A stretch of DNA of 64,000 nt, taken from positions 4,111 through 68,110 of the forward strand of contig CALIBI010000001.1 in assembly GCA_938045815.1 (NCBI GenBank), read 5' to 3'. Below are positions 1,756-56,575 of the stretch, one piece after another. Every line of letters begins with the position of its first letter. Within the stretch, counting starts at the first letter, position 1. This DNA comes from an uncultured Sulfolobales archaeon (lineage in GTDB: Archaea > Thermoproteota > Thermoprotei_A > Sulfolobales > NBVN01). Below the pieces are notes generated by a model. It saw nothing but the letters and a program-made list of their open reading frames with translations, was not told the DNA's origin and made no database searches. The position numbers and the translations under genes are program-made.

Positions 1756-4700
1756 TTACTCCCTCACCTGAGGTATGGGGTGTGTCTTCAAGTACCTGTA
1801 GAGAATGAACGCCACGATACCCAGGAACACTATCACCGCGACCATAATGCTGTATCTTAGTAAATCAGTTGGTTCCTGCGGCGGTGTGGTAGTCTGAATA
1901 ACTGACTGAACCACACCAAACTCCCTACTCAAGACCTCAACCTCATTGTAGGGATTTCTGTAGCTTAATAATAACTCAACAGAATCTATGTAAGTACCTA
2001 CATCAAGATAAACTGCGAAGCTAGTCTGCGAAGACGGGTCTAGATCCCCTATGAAGACTTCCTCACTCTCCCTACCACCACCTACTAGCTTAGCAGTTAT
2101 TCTCTGTGCTTGAGCGTTACCTACGTTTATTAGAGTACAGGAAAGCCTTACTAACCCGCCAGAGTACGACACCTTAACATCAGACAGCATAATCTTTATG
2201 AAGGGCTCAATACTCACGGTGAATGAAATGTTAAGTACTTGCCTCAACCCGTTAGACGTCGTATAAATCACTGTAGCCATGAAGGGTATGTTACCGTATG
2301 TTATGGGGACGGGTACCTGAGCTGAGGGTAACGGATTCAAGTAAACAGGCACATTTATCGAGGTAATTACTCCTGGTTCCAACCTACTAATATAGATCGG
2401 GGTTGTCTTAGGTACGATTACGTAGCTACCGTACGGGTACACAGCTAGGTACACGTTGTAGGCGGGTGCAGTACCTAGATTCAGGATCTTCAGAGTCATG
2501 TTAACCTCCCTAGAATCCCTGAAGTTCAGGGGGGTCTCGCTCCACACCTGAATAAGTATTGGTGAACCAAGAACACTTATAGGGAGCCTCAACCCCTGTG
2601 TTCTGACGTTATCCCAATGATCAATGAAGGATAGCATCATGTCAGCATAGTAAGTACCTGGACTCACGGAGAGCACGTTGATCGGGATCACGAAGTACAT
2701 GAAGTCTCCCTTACCAAACTGAGCTTGTAGTGGTGTCTGAGTCCCTAGTAACTGAGTATAGTATCTTAGTAAGTCCTGCACATTACCGGGCTGTAACGTA
2801 GGTATCTGAGGCAGGGACGAGGTAGCAGCTACCCTAACCCTGCTCTCATTATTAACTGAAGAAACAAAGCCTTCAGGCAGTGTCACGTCAGCCACGAGAC
2901 CTCTAATAGATGGATACTCAGAATTCCTCACAACAACAACAAAGAAGTTCCCGTAAGTTTCAGGTTCTGCTGGCTTCCCAGCCCATGAAGCACTCACTAA
3001 CTCTATACCTAGGGAAACATCATTGATTAGGATAGGCAGCACTACCTCCTCCACCACACCCAGACCCTCACCACCAGAGTTAACTAAGTAGAAGAGTTTT
3101 AGGGAGCTATTGTGCCAGCCAGGACTCATATCTCCTGCGTTCAGAGTAAAACTTAATTGCAGGACTTGATTCGGTGGTATAGGTCCTGAAACGTAAGCTT
3201 TATTGAGACCCTTACTAGCGGTAAGTCCGTCAGGCAACACCAACTCAGCATAGACTGAAGATACTGAGTACGGGTAGTGATTTATTAGGTAGATCACGTA
3301 GGTAGCGTTCTGCGTGTTAGGATATACCGGGTTATTGTTAACCCACCCGAAACTAATCACGCTTAACCCACCTAAAGAACTCGGCGGGTAGGTGCTTACG
3401 GGGACTCCAACCACGTAGTGCGCTGTGACAGGGATGTAGGAACCGTAAATAGTTATGTAGTAAGTCGCCTTGACGCTGAGAATTAACGTATCTTCATCTA
3501 ATTCGCTCAGGCTTAGGTAGGGAACTAACCTACACGAAGATCCTGGACTTAAGTACGCAGAACACACCCCCTCACCATCAATAACAATTACTCCATCAGG
3601 TCCTGAAACCTTAAGGTAAACGTAGCTAGCTCCATACCTACCTAGATTCGTTAGTTCCACGTGCAGCGGGTAAAGCTTCTCTAAGCCGTAGGAAACAGCA
3701 GGTGTTGTGGCTCCCCACCAGACCTTACTTAAGACCAGGTCAGCTACGTAGTTATAGGGGTCTGAAATCAAGAACTGGAAATCTATGACCGTGGTTCTGT
3801 ACAGGAGTGAAGTACCTACTCTAGCGTCGTAAGTCACTATTAGGGACGCGTTATAAAAGCCTGGATTTGCTTCAGAACCCACATCAACTACTAACTGGAG
3901 AACGCAGGTACTACCCGGCTGCACCCCCGCTAAGCAAGTCCCCCCAACAGACTTGACCTGAATGAAGTCCGGGAATACAGGGCTCACATTCAGTAGCGTT
4001 AAGACGTCCTGACCGAAATTACTCAACCTAATAACTAGCGTTACGTCTCTCGAGGTTGGGAGAGCTTCAGCAGCACCACCCTGATAACTCCACTCAACCC
4101 AACCAATCCTTAACACATCCTCAGATACTAGAGTCGCTGTAACGTTTAAGGAGAGGTTAAACCAGAACTCAGAACCTCGGTAAGTAGCTAAGCCCTCAAA
4201 ATAAATCTCAGCTACTATAGTGTTTTCCAGCTGCTCAGACGTATTGACAACTATATTGCTGAAAGTCAGCGTAGCTATGCTACCGTAACTAAGTGGTTCC
4301 TCAAGCGTAGCTACCACATAGTTCCTACCATCTCTCGACCTAAGTCCCTCAGGAAGCTTGAGTACAGCGGTCAGAGAGTTTATCGTTGGTAGATCCCTGT
4401 TCTGTATCGTCACAAACATAACTAGTGAACGACCCTCACTATACGCGACACCGTAACTCCACCCACTATCAACAACCACGATGTTAGGTGCTTCAGGCAC
4501 GCTAACTACTACAGTAAAGCTTACGTTCGTGCTCGACTCATACGTAACCCCATCCTCAGTCCTGGAAGTCACGTTAATCCTTAAGAAACACTCGTAAGAA
4601 CCTGGACTCCCTGAAGGAGAAACATCAATACCACTAACCGTTAAGACATACGTACTATCTCTAGGCATCGTAGGTACCTCAACTCTGATCTCTCCAGGCA

Positions 4701-33083: not shown

Positions 33084-35420
33084 TTATTTATTGATTGATA
33101 AAACAGAAACTGCCTGTCCAAGAGGTATCCCCCCATCATTTAGTGGGACTTTTTCAGACAAGAGTATAGGTATCTTAAGATCCTCTAGAGAGTCTTTGAT
33201 CCCGCTCACTAAGAAATCATTCACTGCAGCACCACCACCTAAAACAATGAAATCAGGCTTGAAGTACCCGCTATCTATCACCTTAACTACTACTCTACCT
33301 AAAGCAAGTCCTAATCCGTACTGGCTAGTACGTCCTACATTAACCTTCACACGTGTCCTCAAATCAGCATCCATTAAAATCTCAATAATTCTACTTAAGA
33401 ACCCGGTCAAATCAATTGAGTACGTGCCATCAGTATACGAAACTCTAAAATCCTCAACCAAGTCTTTAATGACTTCACCACCGCGTGAGAAAGCTTCTAA
33501 CGTTATGGCTGGCTCACCCTCATATGTTCTCACGTAACACACGCCTAGCAGTGCGGAAACAGCGTCTAAGAATCTTCCGGTAGAAGAAGACCACACATAA
33601 TCGCCGCGTCTGACCAGAGTATACAGCATATCTATCTCGTCAAGATCTTTAAGCCCTCTCTCAAAACCTAGCTTAAGAGCTACTTCCTTAACTTCCTCAG
33701 GACTCATGAAGGTGAGGAGGCTTGAAGCCAAGTATCTGGCTGGTCTGTAAGTAGATTCATCACCTATGAAGGGTAGGTACGAGAGGGAACCCACCCTAGC
33801 GTAGCTTAGATCCTCACGTATAATTAGGACTTCACCACCCCAGATAGCCCCGTCATCGCCGTAACCTACCCCATCCATCACTACAGCTATGGTAGGTCTT
33901 CCAAGTATTTTCTGGTCAGCCATAGTAGCTAGAGCGTGAGCGTAATGATGTTGCACCTCAAGCAACTCAAGCTCCTGATCTAGCGCGTAGAATCTCCCTA
34001 AACGACTTGAGTTGTAGTACGGGTGCTTATCTACAACGACAACAGATTTGCTTACGTCCACCCTATAATTATTTACGAGAAACCTGAGGTATTTTGAGAG
34101 GTCCTCGAGCGTGTCGAGATCGTCAGCGTCACCTATATACTGGGTTAATACGACTTTATCCTCAAAACCTACAGCACCAGCAGATTGTAACTCAGCCCCG
34201 AAAGCAATCACGTTCTTAGGTAGTTTGCTGCCTATCTTAATCCAGGTGGGGGCGTACCCCCTACCCCTCCTAAGCAGTACTGGTTTCTCGTTAGTGAATC
34301 GTACTACTGAGTCATCAGCTCTATTAACTATTTCCCTATCATGAGTTAACACATAATCAACTACCTTATTGAGCTTCCCGTAAACACATTCCTCACTAAC
34401 ACACATAGGTTGCCCTTTCGGGTTGCCGCTAGTCATTATAAGGAACTTATCACTTGTGTCAAGAAGTAGTAGGTAGTGTAGTGCTGTATAGGCTGTGAAG
34501 ACACCCTCAACATCCATGTTCGGTGAAACATACTTAGAAACACTTGAATCCTCCTTCTTAGGAAGCAGAACGATAGGTCTCTCAGGCGATTTAAGCAGTT
34601 CCTCAGCTTTCTTGTTAATCACTACAATTTTTCTCAAGACATGCGTGTCGAGGCCCATGATCGCGAAAGGCTTAGTAGGTCTCTCCTTCCTCCTCCTTAA
34701 CTTAAGAACTACTTCGTCGTCAGTGGCTAGAGAAGCTATGTGGTACCCGCCAATCCCCTTAATAGCTACTATAGCGCCCTCCTCAATAAGTCTAGACGCC
34801 TCCTTAATAGGGTCTCTAGACTCAATCAAGGTTCCAGCATTATCTGTTAGCCAGAGTCTAGGACCGTCTGCGGGACAGCTTATGCCCTGAGCATGATACC
34901 TCCTCAAATCCTCAACATCGCTATATTCCCTAGAACACTCATCACACAACCTATACTTACTCATTGAGGTGTTCTCCCTATCGTACGGTACCCTATACAT
35001 CATCGTGAATCTAGGTCCACACCAAGCACACGAGTTGAACGCATACCTGTATCTCCTGTCAGCAGGATTCAGAACCTCTCTTAAGCAGTCATCACATATA
35101 GCGAAGTCTGGAGGTATCATAGACCTCTTTATAGCTTTAACATCACTACTCAATATAACGAAGTCTCTAAAATCACCTACGTCATCCAAGACCTCAATCT
35201 CTACACCCTCAACACGTGCTGTAGGGGGTTTCTCACTCATCAGCTTATTAATAAATCTTGCGAGAGTTTCGTAATCACCCTCAACAACAACCTCAACTTC
35301 TGAACCACCAACGTTTCTTAAATAGCCTTTTACGCCTAGTCTTAACCCTAACCTGTGAAGGAAAGGTCTGAAGCCAACCCCCTGAACAATACCTTCAATT
35401 ACTAACCTCAGTACAGGCAT
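33084..35420 (-). CDS. hypF: Carbamoyltransferase HypF
   Basis: Acylphosphatase domain VQGVGFRPF, two zinc fingers, KGIGGYH YrdC domain, QHHYAH, DGVGYG, PLNDGGIPLGQ. Confidence 0.96.
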   Translation of the reverse strand: MPVLRLVIEGIVQGVGFRPFLHRLGLRLGVKGYLRNVGGSEVEVVVEGDYETLARFINKLMSEKPPTARVEGVEIEVLDDVGDFRDFVILSSDVKAIKRSMIPPDFAICDDCLREVLNPADRRYRYAFNSCAWCGPRFTMMYRVPYDRENTSMSKYRLCDECSREYSDVEDLRRYHAQGISCPADGPRLWLTDNAGTLIESRDPIKEASRLIEEGAIVAIKGIGGYHIASLATDDEVVLKLRRRKERPTKPFAIMGLDTHVLRKIVVINKKAEELLKSPERPIVLLPKKEDSSVSKYVSPNMDVEGVFTAYTALHYLLLLDTSDKFLIMTSGNPKGQPMCVSEECVYGKLNKVVDYVLTHDREIVNRADDSVVRFTNEKPVLLRRGRGYAPTWIKIGSKLPKNVIAFGAELQSAGAVGFEDKVVLTQYIGDADDLDTLEDLSKYLRFLVNNYRVDVSKSVVVVDKHPYYNSSRLGRFYALDQELELLEVQHHYAHALATMADQKILGRPTIAVVMDGVGYGDDGAIWGGEVLIIREDLSYARVGSLSYLPFIGDESTYRPARYLASSLLTFMSPEEVKEVALKLGFERGLKDLDEIDMLYTLVRRGDYVWSSSTGRFLDAVSALLGVCYVRTYEGEPAITLEAFSRGGEVIKDLVEDFRVSYTDGTYSIDLTGFLSRIIEILMDADLRTRVKVNVGRTSQYGLGLALGRVVVKVIDSGYFKPDFIVLGGGAAVNDFLVSGIKDSLEDLKIPILLSEKVPLNDGGIPLGQAVSVLSINK

Positions 35421-36105: not shown

Positions 36106-36921
36106 TTGGCGGGTTCAGTGAGTAGGGATTGGTTCCCGCGCTCGGGTGACGAAACTCCGCATGAGCACACTCACTTAGTGACGCCTGCCAGGGTTTACTT
36201 CAATAATGTCTTGAGTAGTAGGTTCCGAATGATTAAGGTCAAGCCTCTGCGTAGCTTAGTAACCCCTAAACCACCTCAGTTTTTCATGGTTTGGGTACCA
36301 GGAGTTGATGAGATACCGTTAAGTGTGGCTGACTATGACGAGAAAAGCATATCGTTTATTTACGAGGTTAAGGGGGCTGGCACTAACGCTTTATCTAAAC
36401 TCGGTTCAGGGTCTTACTTAGGTCTTAAAGGACCTCTAGGCAAGCCCCTCAACATAGTTGAAGGATTCTCTACACTGCTTGTTGTGGGGGGTTCAGGTGT
36501 TGCGCCAACACCATACATAACTAAGTACTTAGCTTCTAGGGGATGCAGGTTTGAGGTTATTTGGGGGGTTAAGAAAAGGAGCGAGCTCTTTAACCTAGGC
36601 TCCGTGATGAGCGGTGTTGAGTATATACACATAGCCACAGAAGATTGTAGTGTTGGTTATTGCGGGATGGCTTCAGAACTGACCAGAGAACTAGTAAGCA
36701 AGTATAAGTACGATTTAGTGATTGGTGTCGGGCCTAAGGGGATGCTTAAATCTTTATGTGAAGTTACTTCAGGACTTAACACTTACGTGGTTTTAGAGAC
36801 TATGGTGAAGTGCGGTCTCGGGCTTTGCGGTTCTTGTGTCCTCCCCAACACGGATAAACTACTGTGTGTTGACGGGCCAGCGTTTAGGTGTGAGGAGGTG
36901 ATGCAGTATCTCAGGACGTGA
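36106..36921 (+). CDS. pyrK: Dihydroorotate dehydrogenase electron transfer subunit (true start may lie further downstream)
   Basis: QFFMVW, GPLGKP, GGSGVAP, GP..M, MVKCGLGLCGSC..LCVDGP. Confidence 0.9.
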   Translation: MAGSVSRDWFPRSGDETPHEHTHLVTPARVYFNNVLSSRFRMIKVKPLRSLVTPKPPQFFMVWVPGVDEIPLSVADYDEKSISFIYEVKGAGTNALSKLGSGSYLGLKGPLGKPLNIVEGFSTLLVVGGSGVAPTPYITKYLASRGCRFEVIWGVKKRSELFNLGSVMSGVEYIHIATEDCSVGYCGMASELTRELVSKYKYDLVIGVGPKGMLKSLCEVTSGLNTYVVLETMVKCGLGLCGSCVLPNTDKLLCVDGPAFRCEEVMQYLRT

Positions 36922-49599: not shown

Positions 49600-50886
49600 T
49601 TGCTCGTTCATACTGCTGATCTGCATATAGGTGCGTTTAGCGAGGTTCCTCTCTCGGGAGCTCCTCTCGGAGCTCTCAGAGAAATAGTTGAGTATGTGAT
49701 AGAAAATAATGTTAGGTATTTGGTGATCTCAGGTGACTTATTTGAGAGACCTAAGCTTGAGAATTACTCTCTTCTAAGACATGTTGTCAGAGAATTAAAG
49801 AAGTTGAGAGATAGTAATGTTTTCGTGGTTAGTGTTCCAGGAAGTCATGATATTTCTGTTAGAGGTAGTGATTTAGTTCATATTTTGGGAGATGCCGGCT
49901 TAGTGCATCTGACTAAGTATGAAGAAGTTGATGATGGTCTCTCACTAGAGCCTCTAGAACTAGGTGATTACGTTTTTTACGGAGTGCCAGGACTTAAGAG
50001 AGGTTTTGAAGCTAAGTTACTGAGTGAGGGTAAGGTTCGTTTCAGAAACATAAACGATTTAAAGAAGCCTGTTATCGTGCTAGCTCATACCGGCGTAAAG
50101 TTTTATGGTTACGACCCAAGCGATCTTGAGAGCAGATACGGGAGGGTATTCATTTCAAGTGATGAGTGGTTAAGGAGTCTTCCAGATAAAGTAACCTACG
50201 TTGCTTTAGGACATATTCACTACCCCCTCCCACTATCTCATGAGTTCAGGTTAAGAGCTGCGTACGCTGGCGCACCTGTAGGTAGGGACAGGAATGATCT
50301 GCGCGAGACATACGAGCTGAGGAGTAGGGGCTTCAAGAGGAGGTTCTTAGTTGTTGAGCCTGATGAGGAACCGCCTAAAGTAAAGAGTTTATGGAACGAC
50401 TTCGGTGTTGAGGTCTTGTACGAGAGGATTTCCTTTACAGACGTGAAGGAAGTTCTGAACTACGTTAAGAAGTTATCCAGAGATATGCACGGGGATTACA
50501 AAGTCTTGCTAATCGACTTAACTAATGTTGAGGCGGATAAGCTTGGGAAACTCTTATATGAGGCAGACCGCCTAAAAACAGAGTTAAGAAGTAGTAATAC
50601 GTCTCTCATGATTAACACTGAACTCAAGACTAGGGGAGGGTCTGTAGAGATAGAAGTGAAGCCAGGTGAGGGTTACATAGACGCTATAGAGAGATCCGTA
50701 GCAGAAGATCTAGCCAAGAAATTAGGTTTTAGAGTAACTCCGGAGAAAGTATTGGAACTCATTAGTATTCTGGGTAGGAAGAAACCTGAAAGCAGTAGTG
50801 AGGAAGAGTTTTATGAGGAAATGTTTAAGGAATTAATGAAGGTGATGGAGGAGATACTTAGTGAGTCAAGGGAGGCTGCTAGTTAA
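49600..50886 (+). CDS. mre11: DNA double-strand break repair nuclease Mre11
   Basis: ADLHIG, GDLFE, PGSHD, LAH, LGHIH phosphoesterase motifs. Confidence 0.9.
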   Translation: MLVHTADLHIGAFSEVPLSGAPLGALREIVEYVIENNVRYLVISGDLFERPKLENYSLLRHVVRELKKLRDSNVFVVSVPGSHDISVRGSDLVHILGDAGLVHLTKYEEVDDGLSLEPLELGDYVFYGVPGLKRGFEAKLLSEGKVRFRNINDLKKPVIVLAHTGVKFYGYDPSDLESRYGRVFISSDEWLRSLPDKVTYVALGHIHYPLPLSHEFRLRAAYAGAPVGRDRNDLRETYELRSRGFKRRFLVVEPDEEPPKVKSLWNDFGVEVLYERISFTDVKEVLNYVKKLSRDMHGDYKVLLIDLTNVEADKLGKLLYEADRLKTELRSSNTSLMINTELKTRGGSVEIEVKPGEGYIDAIERSVAEDLAKKLGFRVTPEKVLELISILGRKKPESSSEEEFYEEMFKELMKVMEEILSESREAAS

Positions 50887-52174
50887 TATACTTAATGAAG
50901 TAATTAATGATCTTAAGGATGATTACCTGAGCACCAGAAGTGATGAGTTAGTAAGATTGAGAGACCAGGTACTTAAGTCCTACTACGAAGTAGTGAACAT
51001 GAAGACTTCGAGTAAATCACTCGTCGTAGGCTTCGTTGACGCTGGTTTTAGAACATATAAAACGGATATTTCTTTCATAATCCCTATAAAAATTGGTGCT
51101 TTATTAAGAGACATTGACGGAAAACTACTAACAGTTAATGAAGTCTTAGGTAAGTCTTCGGTGGAGAGTATACTCATGTATTCTAGCAGGAAGCCTTCGG
51201 GAGAAAAATACGAATTCAGAGTTAAGGTAAGGTCTGTGAACAGCAACTCACTACTTTTTGAAAACCGTGGTGACGATCTTGTTGCTTCACAAGAAATAAA
51301 TAGATTTGTTAGAGAGTTTGTGAAACCATCACTCAAGAAGAAACCGCGTTTCTTCGTCAGGTTCACTAAGTATATTGAGGGATTAATTGAGCTGGCTTAC
51401 GCGGTTAAACTCCTTCATAAGACTAGTGAGGCAGGACTCAAGCCAGGGTATGTGGTTCTAGACGGTACTCTGGTGAAGTGGTTTGCTATTGAGAGAGCTG
51501 GTAGCGGTCGTGTGGACGGCTTAAACATAGTTTCCGCACTCACAGGTCTTGATGTAGAGACTATCAGGAATCTACTCTGGAGGATTGTAGGTCTCTCAAA
51601 AACAACAAAATTCACCAACATAGCTCGTAGTTACGGAATATTTCGGAGTGCTGGGAACGTGTCCGGCGGACTCTACACAGCCCCTAACTTAAGCGAGAGC
51701 AAGGATGTATGTAGGATTCTGACTGAACAGGCGGCAATACCTAAGAGAAAGAATCTAGTTAAGGAGATTATTGAAATAGTTAATAGGGTTGTTTACGAGA
51801 GGAATAACGTGTATGTTGCTAGGTTCCCCCTAACACCAGACCTCAAGAACGTTTTCGTTCTGGACCTGCACGTGCCGGAACCTATCCTCTCAGTAAGTGA
51901 TGATGCCAGATTTAACGTTGGTGTAGCTACTGACGTTAGGAGGATTCTGGATGAGGTAGTTAACGAGCTTTTCAGAATCAGGTCTAAGCTAATTGGTGAG
52001 CCTCCTTTAGGGTATATGGAGGTAGATAGAGGGGTTAGGTTTAGTGAGGAGGAGAGTAAAACGTTTGAGGAGATCTTAATAGGCTTAGTGCGTGGTTCTC
52101 TAGAGGATGAGCTAGCTGATGTTTTAGTTCAGGTTTTTTCTCCCACAACCCGTATGAGGTATGGGTATAGGTGA
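50861..52174 (+). CDS. nurA: NurA 5'-3' nuclease
   Basis: FVDAG, VLDGTL, GLSKT, C-terminal GYMEVD; context. Confidence 0.82.
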   Translation: MSQGRLLVNILNEVINDLKDDYLSTRSDELVRLRDQVLKSYYEVVNMKTSSKSLVVGFVDAGFRTYKTDISFIIPIKIGALLRDIDGKLLTVNEVLGKSSVESILMYSSRKPSGEKYEFRVKVRSVNSNSLLFENRGDDLVASQEINRFVREFVKPSLKKKPRFFVRFTKYIEGLIELAYAVKLLHKTSEAGLKPGYVVLDGTLVKWFAIERAGSGRVDGLNIVSALTGLDVETIRNLLWRIVGLSKTTKFTNIARSYGIFRSAGNVSGGLYTAPNLSESKDVCRILTEQAAIPKRKNLVKEIIEIVNRVVYERNNVYVARFPLTPDLKNVFVLDLHVPEPILSVSDDARFNVGVATDVRRILDEVVNELFRIRSKLIGEPPLGYMEVDRGVRFSEEESKTFEEILIGLVRGSLEDELADVLVQVFSPTTRMRYGYR

Positions 52175-54282
52175 TTAAGGTGGTTGTAAGTATAGGTCGA
52201 ACCTACGCGTGGCGTGACGGAATAACGCACGTAATAATATCCAGTAGTGACTACAGACCAGGCATTGGTGACATACTTTACGTCAAGACTGAGTCAGGTT
52301 ACGTACTACTTCAGGTAAGCGGGTTTGAAGGAGAGATACCAGTAGCCCCAACCTCCTTCCTAGCTAAAGAAGGGTACCCTCAATACGCTTACGTAATCGA
52401 GAAAACAATACTAGCTAAAACAATACCTATCTTCGAGATAAGATATGTGAGGTCTGGTAACGATGTTAGGAGTGTTATTATGAAGCCTAGTCAGCCTCCC
52501 CCTCTAGACATTCCCGTCTACATTCTTAAGGGAGGTGATGAAGAATCAGAACACGTCATGAGTCTGCTAAGTCGCAAAATACCTAAGAAGGAAGACAACG
52601 CAGTCCCTATTGCATGGCTCAGAGCTGGGATAGCCTCAGTCAAGGAACTCATGCCAGAAAAGTATTTCAGGAATGCTAGCTTAAGGCTAAACCTTGAAGA
52701 CATGATAGCTAAGCACGTCCTCATCTCCGGACAAACAGGTTCCGGAAAAACCACAAGCGTTATGGGCATAATAACTCAGTGGATCAGGTACGGCGGAAAA
52801 CCAAAACCAATTTCCTGGATCATAGCTGACAGACACGGCGAATACTCTGAAACCGAAAAATTCGTGAGCCTTTTAAGTAAGGCGTTAAGAATAAATTCGG
52901 AGTTAAGAGGTTCGTATAAAGGCATCTACATTTACACGCTCAAGACTAATATCGATAGAGTTAATAGAAGACAGACAGAAGGATTTCTAGTAACACGTCT
53001 TGAGGGAGGTTTCGACGCCGCGAGCGTGAATGTTTATGATGTTATTAACGCTGCTGAACTCCTCGGCAGAAACGTTAGCGAACTGCTTGAGATTACCTCA
53101 ATACTTACTACTTTAATCAAGAACATGTCTGAGACGCAACCATCTCAGCACAGCGGGTCTACCCCCACCGGGGGACTTCAACAAACCAAAGAACGTAAAA
53201 TCAGTGAGTCAATTATTAGGGTTTTCGTTGACGAGAATGAAAACCCTACAGGGAATCTCCTAGCTCTCATACCACTCATAACTAGTAACGTAGTTAGGTA
53301 CGAAGGTGTTAGAGAACCTAAGAAGAGAGGCGTTTATGAAGTATTCGTTAATGCAGGGATTTACGTTCACACATTAAGAGATTTCAGAAGGATGATCTTG
53401 TCGATTTTTGGCTGGCGAGAAAGAATAGAAAACTTAATAGTTAATGGTAAGAAAATACCTGCTAGCGTAATCGATGATAGGAACTCCGTATTCAAGGTTA
53501 CGCCAATACTTAAAGACCCGCAGTCATTGATAACACTACTTAAAGCTATAGTTGATTCTGCGGAAAAAACATTTGAAGCGAATCGAGCTTCTTACCCGTG
53601 GTATGTTAGTAAGGATAGCGAACCTTCAACCCTCACCTCTATCCTCACTTCAGGTTCGTTAGATCTTAGTGAGGTGGTGCGTAGGGTAGATGAGGGTGCG
53701 TTAGTGATTCTTGATGTTTCTAAGCTACCTTTATCTCTCGGTGACATGGTTGTTATTAGTGTTTTGAGGAGGCTTTTTGAGGAGAGGATGCTGGCTGGTG
53801 TTGATGTAGCGAGGGAGAAGCCTGTTGTAGCTGTTGTTTCTGAGGAGGCACCACTTTATCTTAGTCCCGAGAAGGTTTCAAGTCCCTACAACATATTTGC
53901 TAGGCTGGCTAGGGAGGGGAGGAAATTCGGTATAGGCTTGATAGCTTTATCTCAGATAGCAACCATGATTGAGAGGCAGATACTAGCAAATTTCAATACC
54001 TTGATAGCTTTAAGAACCAAGCACAGAGGCGACATAGATTATATGAGCAGTATAGGCATCCCGGCTGAGTCTCTGCCAAGCCTTAGTGATAGGGAGGGGT
54101 TCCTCTACACTCCCGACTTAAGTGTTAGTGAGCCTATACCTGTTTATGTTCCAGCCTACTTCGATTACAGCAGTGAGATAGAGAGTGAGTTTAGCAGGTT
54201 AGTTAAGTCGGAGGAAGACTCAGTCAGTGTTGCGAAAGCACTCTTAGGTGGGGTGAGCGAAGACGAGGATTCTGGGGGTTAG
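52171..54282 (+). CDS. herA: HerA helicase/translocase
   Basis: N-terminal HAS barrel, KHVLISGQTGSGKTT, DRHGEY, SEEA, REGRKFG...SQ. Confidence 0.9.
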   Translation: MIKVVVSIGRTYAWRDGITHVIISSSDYRPGIGDILYVKTESGYVLLQVSGFEGEIPVAPTSFLAKEGYPQYAYVIEKTILAKTIPIFEIRYVRSGNDVRSVIMKPSQPPPLDIPVYILKGGDEESEHVMSLLSRKIPKKEDNAVPIAWLRAGIASVKELMPEKYFRNASLRLNLEDMIAKHVLISGQTGSGKTTSVMGIITQWIRYGGKPKPISWIIADRHGEYSETEKFVSLLSKALRINSELRGSYKGIYIYTLKTNIDRVNRRQTEGFLVTRLEGGFDAASVNVYDVINAAELLGRNVSELLEITSILTTLIKNMSETQPSQHSGSTPTGGLQQTKERKISESIIRVFVDENENPTGNLLALIPLITSNVVRYEGVREPKKRGVYEVFVNAGIYVHTLRDFRRMILSIFGWRERIENLIVNGKKIPASVIDDRNSVFKVTPILKDPQSLITLLKAIVDSAEKTFEANRASYPWYVSKDSEPSTLTSILTSGSLDLSEVVRRVDEGALVILDVSKLPLSLGDMVVISVLRRLFEERMLAGVDVAREKPVVAVVSEEAPLYLSPEKVSSPYNIFARLAREGRKFGIGLIALSQIATMIERQILANFNTLIALRTKHRGDIDYMSSIGIPAESLPSLSDREGFLYTPDLSVSEPIPVYVPAYFDYSSEIESEFSRLVKSEEDSVSVAKALLGGVSEDEDSGG

Positions 54283-56575
54283 GTTAAGGAATATCAGGAG
54301 TTATGTTGATAAAACTATTGTTTTCCCGCAATCCGGAACCACAGTTATTTACGGAGATAACGGTACAGGAAAGACTTCTATTCTCCTCGGTATTAACTAC
54401 GCGTTATTCGGCCTACCTAGAGGTCAGAAAAGCAGTGACCCTTTCATAGGTTTTGTTAGTCCATACAAAGAGGACTTGCTGAGAGTTGGTGCGTCCTCAG
54501 CGATTGTTAGGATTCTCCTAAGGCATAGAGATAAGCTAATACTAATTGAGAGAAGACTCAATGGCGATAGGGGTGGTAGGATAGTGATTTTCGGGATTAC
54601 TGGCAACACACTTAAGGTTGAGTCGAGCAGCAGTTATTCTTCAGAAGATCTTACTGAGAAGATACTCGAAATATTTAGCTTGAGGGAAGATCCTAGGAAG
54701 AGTAGAAGCACCTACATATTCAGTAACGTGATGTATGTTCCTCAGTTCAACATACACCAGACATTAGTGCTTGACGATAAACAGAGGAGAGAACTTGTTG
54801 ACAGGGTTTTAGGGCTAGATAAGTATATGACTGCACTAAACAGTATCGAGAAGATAGCTAAAGGCAAGAACTCAGTAATCGGTAGTGAGCTCTACAATAT
54901 TAATAAGATGATTGAAGACCGCAGAAAAACTCTCGAGAAAATAAACGTGAATGAAGTGAGAACCAAATTAAGTGAGTTGAGGGCTAGGTACGACAAGCTA
55001 AACGAGAAATTAATTGAGTTACGCAAACAACGCGAGTCTCTGGAGACGGAGAAAGAAAAACTTGATAGTATTATGTATGAGTTAAGTCTTAAGATAGGTG
55101 AGTTAAGGAATAAGATTAGAGTAATTGATGCAAGAGAAAAAGAACTAAAGAACAAGAAAGAAGGACTTAGCAAGATTCTTTCAGAAATAGGCTTACGTAG
55201 TGTAGAGGGTGTTAATGATCTCGTTAGAGAGCTTCAAACGCGTAGACTGGATCTGGAGGATGAGTATTCTCGCGTGAGTGAGAATCTCAAACAACTAGAT
55301 GAGAAGTTAAGAAGTATTGAGGGCGAGGAGAAGAAGACTCTCTCGCGCGTGTCTAGGCTAGAAGCCAGGATAGAAAGTATAAAGAGTAGGGTTAGGGAGA
55401 TTTGGAGCGAGGTTGTAGAAACGAGGGATGTCGTGGCTCAGGGTATATGTCCCTTATGTAGGCAATCAATAACGCGTGAGTATGGTGAGAAGCTGGTAAG
55501 AGATATATATGCGGAAATGCGTAAGACCGCTATGGAGATAGTACCACTAATCAGGGAGCTTTGGGCTGAGAAGCTTCTTCAGCACAAGCTCTCCAGCGAG
55601 AAAGAAGAAATTACGAAAATAAGGAGTGAGTTAAGTGAGTATCAGAATAAGATTTTAGAAAAGCTTAGGGAAGTAGAAGCTAGTATTCCTAAACTTAATC
55701 AAGTTGCTGAGCTTCATGAAGAAATCTCTAAGTTAGAGCGTGAGGTCTTGGAGAAGGCTAGGGTTGCAGAAGAACTTAATTCTGCTGAGGAGGAGCTTAG
55801 GAGACTTAACGAAAAGGTAAATGAATTAAAGAGCAAGTTAAGCGATATTACGAAGGAGGAGGTTAACCGCAGCAAAGAGTTAGGAGAAGTCTCTAAGCAG
55901 ATAGAGAACTTAGAGAAAGATTTAGAAAGATATAGTGAGTTAAGTGATGAGTTAAGAAAGCTCGAGTTGAGAGTCTCCACCCTCACTAAGGTTAGAGATT
56001 ACCTAATCAACCACATTTATAAAGGTGTTGAAACTATAGAGAGTACTGTTCGTAATTTAGCGCACGACAGGTTCAGTGAGTATTTTCAGGAGTACTTTAT
56101 TAAGCTTCTCGAAGATCAGGAGTTAGTTGAGGCATCAGTAAGTGACTTCAAACCTGTCCTGAAAGTTAGTGGTGAAGTCGCCAGAGGACACGAGATCTCA
56201 CAGCCTAGCGGTGCTCAACTAATTGCTTTAGGTCTTGCTTATAGACTAGCTCTGAACAGGGTGGTGAGAGATTTAAACAAAGAGTTGAGAGATTCAGTTT
56301 TAATCATGGATGAACCAACACTAGGCTTCAGTCCTGAAAGAGTTGAGAAGTTGAGGGAACTAATAGAGTCTATAAGGAGTAATTCGGGTGATGCGCAAGT
56401 AATACTAGTGACTCACGATGAGAGATTACTTGCTGTGGGTGATTGCAAAATAAGACTCTCCATAAATCAATCAAGAAATGAAACAATAGTTGATTATGAG
56501 GAGTGTTTCGTAAATGAAGGAAACATAGATTTCCGGGAATACGTGAACTTCGTCTCTAGCATGCTCTTGAAGTAG
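54263..56575 (+). CDS. rad50: Rad50 ATPase (770 aa if started at ACG 54263; the 54476 call omits Walker A)
   Basis: In-frame RILGVRLRNIRSY and GDNGTGKTS (54353-54379) upstream of 54476; coiled coil with CPLC hook; MDEPT, VTHD. Confidence 0.9.
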   Translation, partial: TRILGVRLRNIRSYVDKTIVFPQSGTTVIYGDNGTGKTSILLGINYALFGLPRGQKSSDPFIGFVSPYKEDLLRVGASSAIVRILLRHRDKLILIERRLNGDRGGRIVIFGITGNTLKVESSSSYSSEDLTEKILEIFSLREDPRKSRSTYIFSNVMYVPQFNIHQTLVLDDKQRRELVDRVLGLDKYMTALNSIEKIAKGKNSVIGSELYNINKMIEDRRKTLEKINVNEVRTKLSELRARYDKLNEKLIELRKQRESLETEKEKLDSIMYELSLKIGELRNKIRVIDAREKELKNKKEGLSKILSEIGLRSVEGVNDLVRELQTRRLDLEDEYSRVSENLKQLDEKLRSIEGEEKKTLSRVSRLEARIESIKSRVREIWSEVVETRDVVAQGICPLCRQSITREYGEKLVRDIYAEMRKTAMEIVPLIRELWAEKLLQHKLSSEKEEITKIRSELSEYQNKILEKLREVEASIPKLNQVAELHEEISKLEREVLEKARVAEELNSAEEELRRLNEKVNELKSKLSDITKEEVNRSKELGEVSKQIENLEKDLERYSELSDELRKLELRVSTLTKVRDYLINHIYKGVETIESTVRNLAHDRFSEYFQEYFIKLLEDQELVEASVSDFKPVLKVSGEVARGHEISQPSGAQLIALGLAYRLALNRVVRDLNKELRDSVLIMDEPTLGFSPERVEKLRELIESIRSNSGDAQVILVTHDERLLAVGDCKIRLSINQSRNETIVDYEECFVNEGNIDFREYVNFVSSMLLK

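Follow-up and report, generated by a model that had tools for sequence, protein, structure and literature searches.

Rad50 of a Zestosphaera archaeon is probably translated from an ACG codon placed 6 nt behind a Shine-Dalgarno sequence

Introduction

How is a rad50 gene translated whose reading frame holds no canonical start codon ahead of the Walker A motif? This question is raised by the herA-rad50 junction in a 64,000-nt stretch of DNA (positions 4111–68110 of contig C1, hereafter the window) from an uncultured hot-spring archaeon of the genus Zestosphaera, family Desulfurococcaceae, the assembly of which (designated G000) amounts to 1.52 Mb in 72 contigs. Rad50 is encoded there by the last gene of an operon consisting of mre11, an open reading frame (ORF) of 437 aa, herA and rad50, in which all junctions overlap and all features lie on the + strand. 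The rad50 frame, which is +1 relative to herA, opens after an in-frame TGA at 54254–54256, reads GCG AAG ACG AGG ATT CTG GGG GTT AGG, and stays open to 56575; its first canonical start is the TTG at 54476–54478. An earlier note, made from this sequence, had proposed that Rad50 starts at the ACG at 54263–54265. By examining the junction in orthologues and near-cognate codons across the genome, we found that Rad50 is probably translated from this ACG by near-cognate initiation anchored on a Shine-Dalgarno (SD) sequence.

Results

The rad50 frame lacks a canonical start ahead of Walker A

Between the opening TGA and TTG 54476, the rad50 frame comprises 73 in-frame codons (54257–54475) with zero ATG, GTG or TTG, and the Walker A/P-loop GDNGTGKTS (54353–54379) lies inside this stretch, 5′ of every canonical start. 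All coordinates given in the earlier note were confirmed. At the in-frame frequency of canonical starts in this genome (4.9%), the chance of 73 codons without one is approximately 2.5%. Automatic gene calling chose the TTG, and the public gene call at the locus (P0003) is consequently a protein of 699 aa that begins MLRVGASS and is devoid of Walker A. Reading from the ACG instead gives a coding sequence of 770 codons plus stop (54263–56575).

Besides Walker A, the translated frame has the CxxC zinc hook of the coiled coil, as CPLCRQ in the middle of the protein, and the C-terminal lobe with its signature motif (SGAQ), Walker B (LIMDEPT) and H-loop (VTHD). The N-terminal ABC-ATPase lobe is present, matching Pfam AAA_23 and SMC_N, and AAA_21 was matched at 510–725; the matches in the Protein Data Bank (PDB) are Rad50 ATPase chains and cover residues 7–207. 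The best NCBIfam matches are Rad50 models, but they score 146.5 bits against an equivalog cut-off of 700. The operon context of Rad50, with mre11 and herA, is present, and the host genome holds no second rad50. Judged by its sequence, the product is a divergent and short (770 aa) Rad50. In alignments with known Rad50 proteins, ACG 54263 coincides with Met1 of P. furiosus Rad50 in the solved structure 1II8, and with the first position of PRK03918, the Rad50 profile of NCBIfam.

The stretch ahead of the TTG also behaves as coding sequence. The dicodon (hexamer) coding score of 54263–54475 in the rad50 frame is 0.51, compared with a gene-body mean of 0.52 and with −0.40 and −1.45 in the other two frames. 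Between ACG-bearing genomes, the ratio of nonsynonymous to synonymous substitution rates (dN/dS) of the 70 codons 3′ of the ACG is 0.014–0.075 at dS of 0.6–1.8, including a dN/dS of 0.025 at dS 1.55 between the host and locus L032, both of which lack a canonical start there. Purifying selection on the 70 codons after the ACG is strong. The coding score and the low dN/dS thus indicate that the rad50 frame is the one in which the N-terminal stretch is read, and that selection maintains it.

ACG 54263 lies at the preferred distance from a Shine-Dalgarno sequence

The 3′-end of the 16S rRNA in the host genome is GGATCACCTCCT, to which the GGGGTGA at 54250–54256 is complementary (GGATCACCTCC), making it a 7-base SD; the last three bases of this SD are the TGA that opens the rad50 frame. 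ACG 54263 sits 6 nt past it, as the earlier note had stated. To place this spacing in the host genome, we considered the distance d (in nt) between GGTGA and the start codon where the TGA is in frame. Canonical starts were found at d=6 in 52% of such ORFs genome-wide, compared with 4–16% at d=0, 3, 9, 12 and 15; more generally, they concentrate 5–7 nt after GGTGA and have fallen to the background level by 9–15 nt. A spacing of 6 nt is therefore the preferred SD-to-start spacing of this genome, and the ACG occupies it.

Orthologues place their start codon at the position of the ACG

The junction was surveyed in 28 loci, drawn from species genomes of the genus and the order, from metagenome contigs and from contigs of public assemblies. 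In 11 orthologous loci the position aligned with the ACG holds a canonical codon, namely ATG in eight (L005, L011, L012, L033, L034, L045, L046 and L048) and GTG in three (L009, L010 and L013), and the SD is conserved at the same distance 5′ of the start position in all orthologues surveyed. The ACG itself is retained in 11 distinct sequences and occurs in 6/10 species genomes of Zestosphaera. It is accompanied by a GTG two codons 5′ in L003 and in the L004/L007/L035, L006/L038 and L008/L037/L047 groups; in the window and in L032 no canonical start precedes Walker A. L032, which derives from an independent sequencing run, encodes a Rad50 that is 68% identical and has the frame TGA GGA GAG ACG, and its gene was likewise shortened by the gene caller (P0014, 720 aa). 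Taken with the alignment of Rad50 Met1, the ATG and GTG of orthologues, the six species genomes and the two lineages without a canonical alternative support the ACG as the start codon.

The same comparison reveals how the codon could change without consequence for the overlapping gene. C54264 is the third base of the herA Asp codon GAC (54262–54264), and since this is a wobble base shared by GAT and GAC, a T-to-C change that turns ATG into ACG does not alter HerA, as had been suggested. This is directly displayed by L033, L034 and L048, where TGA GCG AAG ATG AGG ATT equals the window sequence with T for C, so that GAT goes with ATG there and GAC with ACG in the window. Both Asp codons are in common use in the host (GAT:GAC = 54:46).

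We also asked how old the ACG is. The Rad50 tree has a backbone polytomy; its best topology requires at least two changes for ACG, and the AU test does not reject a tree on which all ACG sequences form one clade (p-AU 0.40). Under either history, the sequences indicate that the ACG is a codon that has persisted across divergences at which synonymous sites are saturated.

Near-cognate codons are enriched at the same spacing across the genome

Next, the whole assembly was scanned for coding potential upstream of the first canonical start of each frame. Rad50 was among the five extreme cases, with rpoB at the top. A crude count of extensions scoring at least 15 gave 17 in 1.5 Mb of the host genome, 12 in 0.76 Mb of contig C1 of G003, a deep-branching Zestosphaera, and six in 0.76 Mb of G034, a complete genome (1.32 Mb) from another family within the same order. 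As the numbers are similar in these two control genomes, the crude count is not specific, and a positional test was therefore applied. It covered ORFs of 100 codons or more whose frame opens directly behind a GGTGA with the TGA in frame, and whose first six codons include no canonical start; ACG, ATA, ATC, ATT and CTG were scored at d=6 and compared with the five flanking in-frame positions.

In the host, 12/25 ORFs had one of the five codons at d=6 (ACG 4, ATA 4, CTG 2, ATC 1 and ATT 1), compared with 11/125 at the flanking positions (Fisher p=1.5e-5). Against the 9.3% usage of the five codons, this corresponds to a binomial p=7e-7, and ACG alone, at 4/25 against a codon usage of 0.95%, gave p=9e-5. 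In the first 760 kb of G034 the figures were 6/9 (ACG 2, ATA 3 and CTG 1) and 1/45 (p=2e-5), with GGTGA-N6-ATA/ACG/CTG at ORFs without a canonical start at, for example, 22682(−), 464157(−) and 168774(−). No enrichment was found in contig 1 of G003, with 4/23 at d=6 and 0–5/23 at each flanking position. The same arrangement in G034 indicates that the phenomenon reaches past Zestosphaera. Given this positional enrichment, SD-anchored near-cognate starts, ACG among them, look like a trait of this archaeal group that concerns approximately 1% of genes.

Other genes with probable near-cognate starts

The first of the individual genes is rpoB, which encodes RNA polymerase subunit B. Its putative start codon (contig C10 of G000, minus strand, at plus-strand position 34896; loci L049, L074 and L075; outside the window) is the CTG of GCGGGGTGA GGG GAT CTG, behind which a conserved N-terminal stretch of 103 codons is devoid of canonical starts. 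In each of G000, G001 and G004, GGGGTGA, two codons and CTG are followed by 101 codons without ATG, GTG or TTG. This CTG at SD+6 is common to G000, G001 and G004, which differ in the flanking codons, and the aligned codon is TTG in G002, G007, G008 and G009 and ATG in G003, G005 and G006. Within the window, pyrD had been named as a second SD-led near-cognate start, and the survey supported this. Its start region (36894–36910, +) comprises GGAGGTGA, 6 nt, and then ATC at 36908–36910; the ATC is kept in seven species genomes, and in G003, G005 and G006 the codon that follows is TTG. The first canonical ATG of pyrD comes 21 codons past ATC 36908 and falls within the DHO_dh domain, the Pfam match of which covers the open frame from residue 10 onwards.

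As in pyrD, Pfam domains begin 5′ of any canonical start in the genes for a glycogen synthase, a class-III aminotransferase, a DUF498 protein and an AbrB/MazE-like protein. In the DUF498 gene, an ATA is aligned with the ATG of deep-branching species. A RIO-type kinase has ATA at SD+6 both in G000 (C42:1103, +) and in G003 (C1:348852, +), the deepest-branching member of the genus, and at least nine codons are free of canonical starts, 34 codons in G003. ACG stands at the expected start of four further genes of the host genome, encoding a LeuT-type sodium symporter (C45:38317, +), a flavin-reductase-like protein (C55:12944, −), an AlaX-like protein (C61:33943, −) and the class-III aminotransferase (C7:~9490, −). 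In the AlaX-like protein the HxxxH motif lies ahead of any canonical start, and for this gene and the aminotransferase the ATG of relatives is aligned with the ACG. Separately, the class-III aminotransferase gene of G001, the closest relative (C15:12731–13453, L106), contains a TAA in frame, gives a shortened match and is possibly a pseudogene.

A proposed mode of initiation

These observations could be accommodated by the following scheme. The SD GGGGTGA would pair with the 3′-end of the 16S rRNA and thereby set the ribosomal P site 6 nt downstream, where initiator Met-tRNA would pair with the first and third bases of the ACG, the mismatch in the middle being tolerated. A single mismatch might be accepted generally at this position, whether of the middle base as in ACG, of the first as in CUG, or of the third as in AUH. 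Ribosomes terminating at the herA stop, 17 nt past the ACG, may in addition feed the start by translational coupling. The predicted product would be the full-length Rad50 of 770 aa including Walker A. We infer initiation at the ACG, methionine as the first residue, and the efficiency of initiation.

Several points weigh against this scheme. The near-cognate codons ATT 54269 and CTG 54272 follow the ACG in the same frame, and conservation cannot exclude either of them. Five of the seven lineages with the ACG also have a GTG two codons 5′ of it, and because of this upstream GTG the conservation of the ACG in those five is no proof of its use. ACG initiates in E. coli at only about 0.1–1% of AUG (bioRxiv 10.1101/063800), and S. 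solfataricus aIF1 reportedly discriminates against non-canonical starts (cited in PMC6237735). The 72-contig source assembly, moreover, is probably metagenome-derived. A general role of the upstream GTG as the start codon of the ACG-bearing lineages was considered and rejected: the window and L032 have GCG and GGA, respectively, where the relatives have GTG. In those relatives the GTG abuts the SD (d=0), a spacing with few starts genome-wide.

The initiation apparatus of these genomes was also inspected. A loss of aIF1 (SUI1), which would relax start selection, was considered and dropped, PF01253 being above cut-off in all 10 genomes of the genus. An unusual initiator tRNA was considered as well. 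Scanning G000 with ARAGORN and with regular expressions recognized no initiator tRNA-Met; the sole tRNA with a CAT anticodon is an intron-containing, elongator-like tRNA-Met on the 15th contig (20207–20298). The initiator tRNA gene is probably either intron-containing or missing from the assembly.

Alternative explanations of the junction

If Rad50 is not initiated at the ACG, the nearest alternative is initiation in the same frame at ATT 54269 or CTG 54272. Both are downstream of the SD, codons of the CTG and ATH type act as starts at SD+6 elsewhere in the host genome, and in E. coli ATT and CTG reach 1–2% of AUG and are thus stronger than ACG (bioRxiv 10.1101/063800). However, they lie 12 and 15 nt past the SD, in the range in which canonical starts are at background, and the near-cognate enrichment is confined to d=6. 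The starts of orthologues, moreover, sit at the position of the ACG rather than at those of ATT or CTG, and the CTG is replaced by CTA in L003 and L033. We therefore regard a start at either codon as unlikely.

A start that has been lost altogether, such that the gene is a recent pseudogene yielding no Rad50, or merely a truncated inactive form from TTG 54476, would agree with the missing canonical start and with the 699-aa product without Walker A that gene callers give. Yet the 770-codon frame is intact, and its N-terminal 70 codons are constrained, as the above dN/dS values demonstrate at dS of up to 1.8. The ACG state persists in several species without any second rad50 to take over in the host, and rpoB, an essential gene, is in the same situation. 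It is thus very unlikely that the locus is decaying.

An error of assembly or consensus at C54264, or a minor population variant there, would mean that the organism in fact has ATG. The fragmentation of the assembly into 72 contigs leaves room for this, and the junctions of L033 and L034 differ from that of the window by the T alone. Against it, at least six species genomes, assembled independently, have the ACG, as do metagenome contigs and contigs from public runs, and random errors would not produce an excess of near-cognate codons at one position, SD+6. The agreement of independent assemblies and the position-specific pattern make an error highly improbable.

C-to-U editing of the mRNA could also restore a canonical start, turning the rad50 ACG into AUG and the rpoB CUG into UUG, since at the start codon both genes show a T-to-C difference from their relatives. 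Start codons made in this way occur in plant organelles; in archaea, to our knowledge, mRNA editing is not known. Half of the non-canonical codons at SD+6 are ATA, ATC or ATT, which C-to-U conversion does not repair; editing would thus be neither sufficient nor needed, and we give it little credence.

Least credible is a fusion of HerA to Rad50 through programmed +1 frameshifting close to the herA stop: the frames are suitably offset and the run G GGG G at 54274–54278 would let tRNA-Gly re-pair, but this sole plausible slip site is not conserved (L003 has TCT AGG AGT, and L032 and most relatives have TCT GGG AGT) and has no slow codon ahead of it, orthologues start rad50 separately, in the ordinary way, at the position of the ACG, and the SD at 6 nt favours internal initiation, in keeping with the low rank that the earlier note had given to such a fusion.

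Discussion

SD-anchored initiation at ACG 54263, the reading that we favour for rad50, has partial counterparts in known systems. In bacteria, rare starts include the AUU of infC and of pcnB, and CTG, ATT, ATC as well as ATA count as start codons of NCBI table 11, which does not list ACG. The same four codons are annotated as bacterial start codons (bioRxiv 10.1101/063800). The Zestosphaera cases resemble rare bacterial starts in being SD-led internal starts with a codon one base off AUG, presumably read by initiator tRNA, and the host pyrD, rpoB, DUF498 and RIO kinase genes, of the ATA/ATC/ATT/CTG class, would fit that group. They differ in that the host machinery is archaeal (aIF1, aIF1A and aIF2), and in that the codons are conserved across species and concern approximately 1% of genes, including the essential rpoB. 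When initiation from all 64 codons was measured in E. coli (Hecht et al.), ACG initiated with N-terminal Met behind a good ribosome-binding site (bioRxiv 10.1101/063800). Unlike in E. coli, where ACG, of the 0.1–1% class, is not used by native genes, a conserved repair gene of the host has no start available to it other than the ACG.

ACG starts are also found in eukaryotes and their viruses, as in VP2 of adeno-associated virus (AAV) and C′ of Sendai virus. These are alike in relying on Met-tRNAi with factors of the e/aIF2 type, and their output is often below that of AUG; they differ in depending on scanning and Kozak context, whereas the host start would depend on SD pairing at a fixed 6 nt within an overlapping operon. 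Within the archaea, ribosome profiling of Haloferax volcanii found approximately 30% of putative alternative initiation sites to be near-cognate (PMC7261190). Those are alternative sites, set aside as possible false positives, and the mRNAs of H. volcanii are mostly leaderless; the host cases, in contrast, are SD-led and appear to be the sole conserved starts of core genes. A literature search found nothing on ACG starts in archaea, nor on translation in Zestosphaera.

As to what such a start costs, it is plausible, as the earlier note supposed, that the ACG lowers the dosage of Rad50, which is hypothetical at present. The use of CTG by rpoB suggests that the efficiency penalty of a near-cognate start may be modest in these archaea.

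The finding bears on annotation in the first place. Standard gene finders accept only ATG, GTG and TTG, and thereby cut Rad50 to 699 aa (720 aa in the relative) with the loss of Walker A, so that a reconstruction of repair or metabolism would score the shortened protein as defective. The same shortening affects rpoB, pyrD, the LeuT-type transporter, the AlaX-like editing protein, the RIO kinase and others in the genome. Beyond this, the data suggest that a strong SD at a fixed 6 nt can license ACG, CUG and AUH as sole starts in these hyperthermophilic Thermoproteota, in conserved genes and even in essential ones, which offers a handle on the stringency of archaeal start-codon selection by aIF1 and aIF2. 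It also opens the question whether near-cognate starts set the ratios of subunits in operons such as mre11-herA-rad50.

Other features of the operon

Upstream of rad50, mre11 occupies 49600–50886 (+) and carries a Metallophos domain, and the 437-aa ORF (50861–52174, +) lies between mre11 and herA, overlapping both. This ORF has no Pfam or NCBIfam family match; it occupies the position at which NurA is expected in the archaeal mre11-rad50-herA-nurA cluster. The herA gene (52171–54282, +; stop TAG 54280–54282) encodes 703 aa, matches Pfam DUF87/HerA and NCBIfam HerA, and overlaps rad50 by 20 nt. HerA is unusually long at this size, and the HerA models match its central and C-terminal parts only, far under the equivalog cut-offs. 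The rad50 start overlaps the acidic tail of HerA, SEDEDSG(G/S), a sequence conserved among the crown Zestosphaera.

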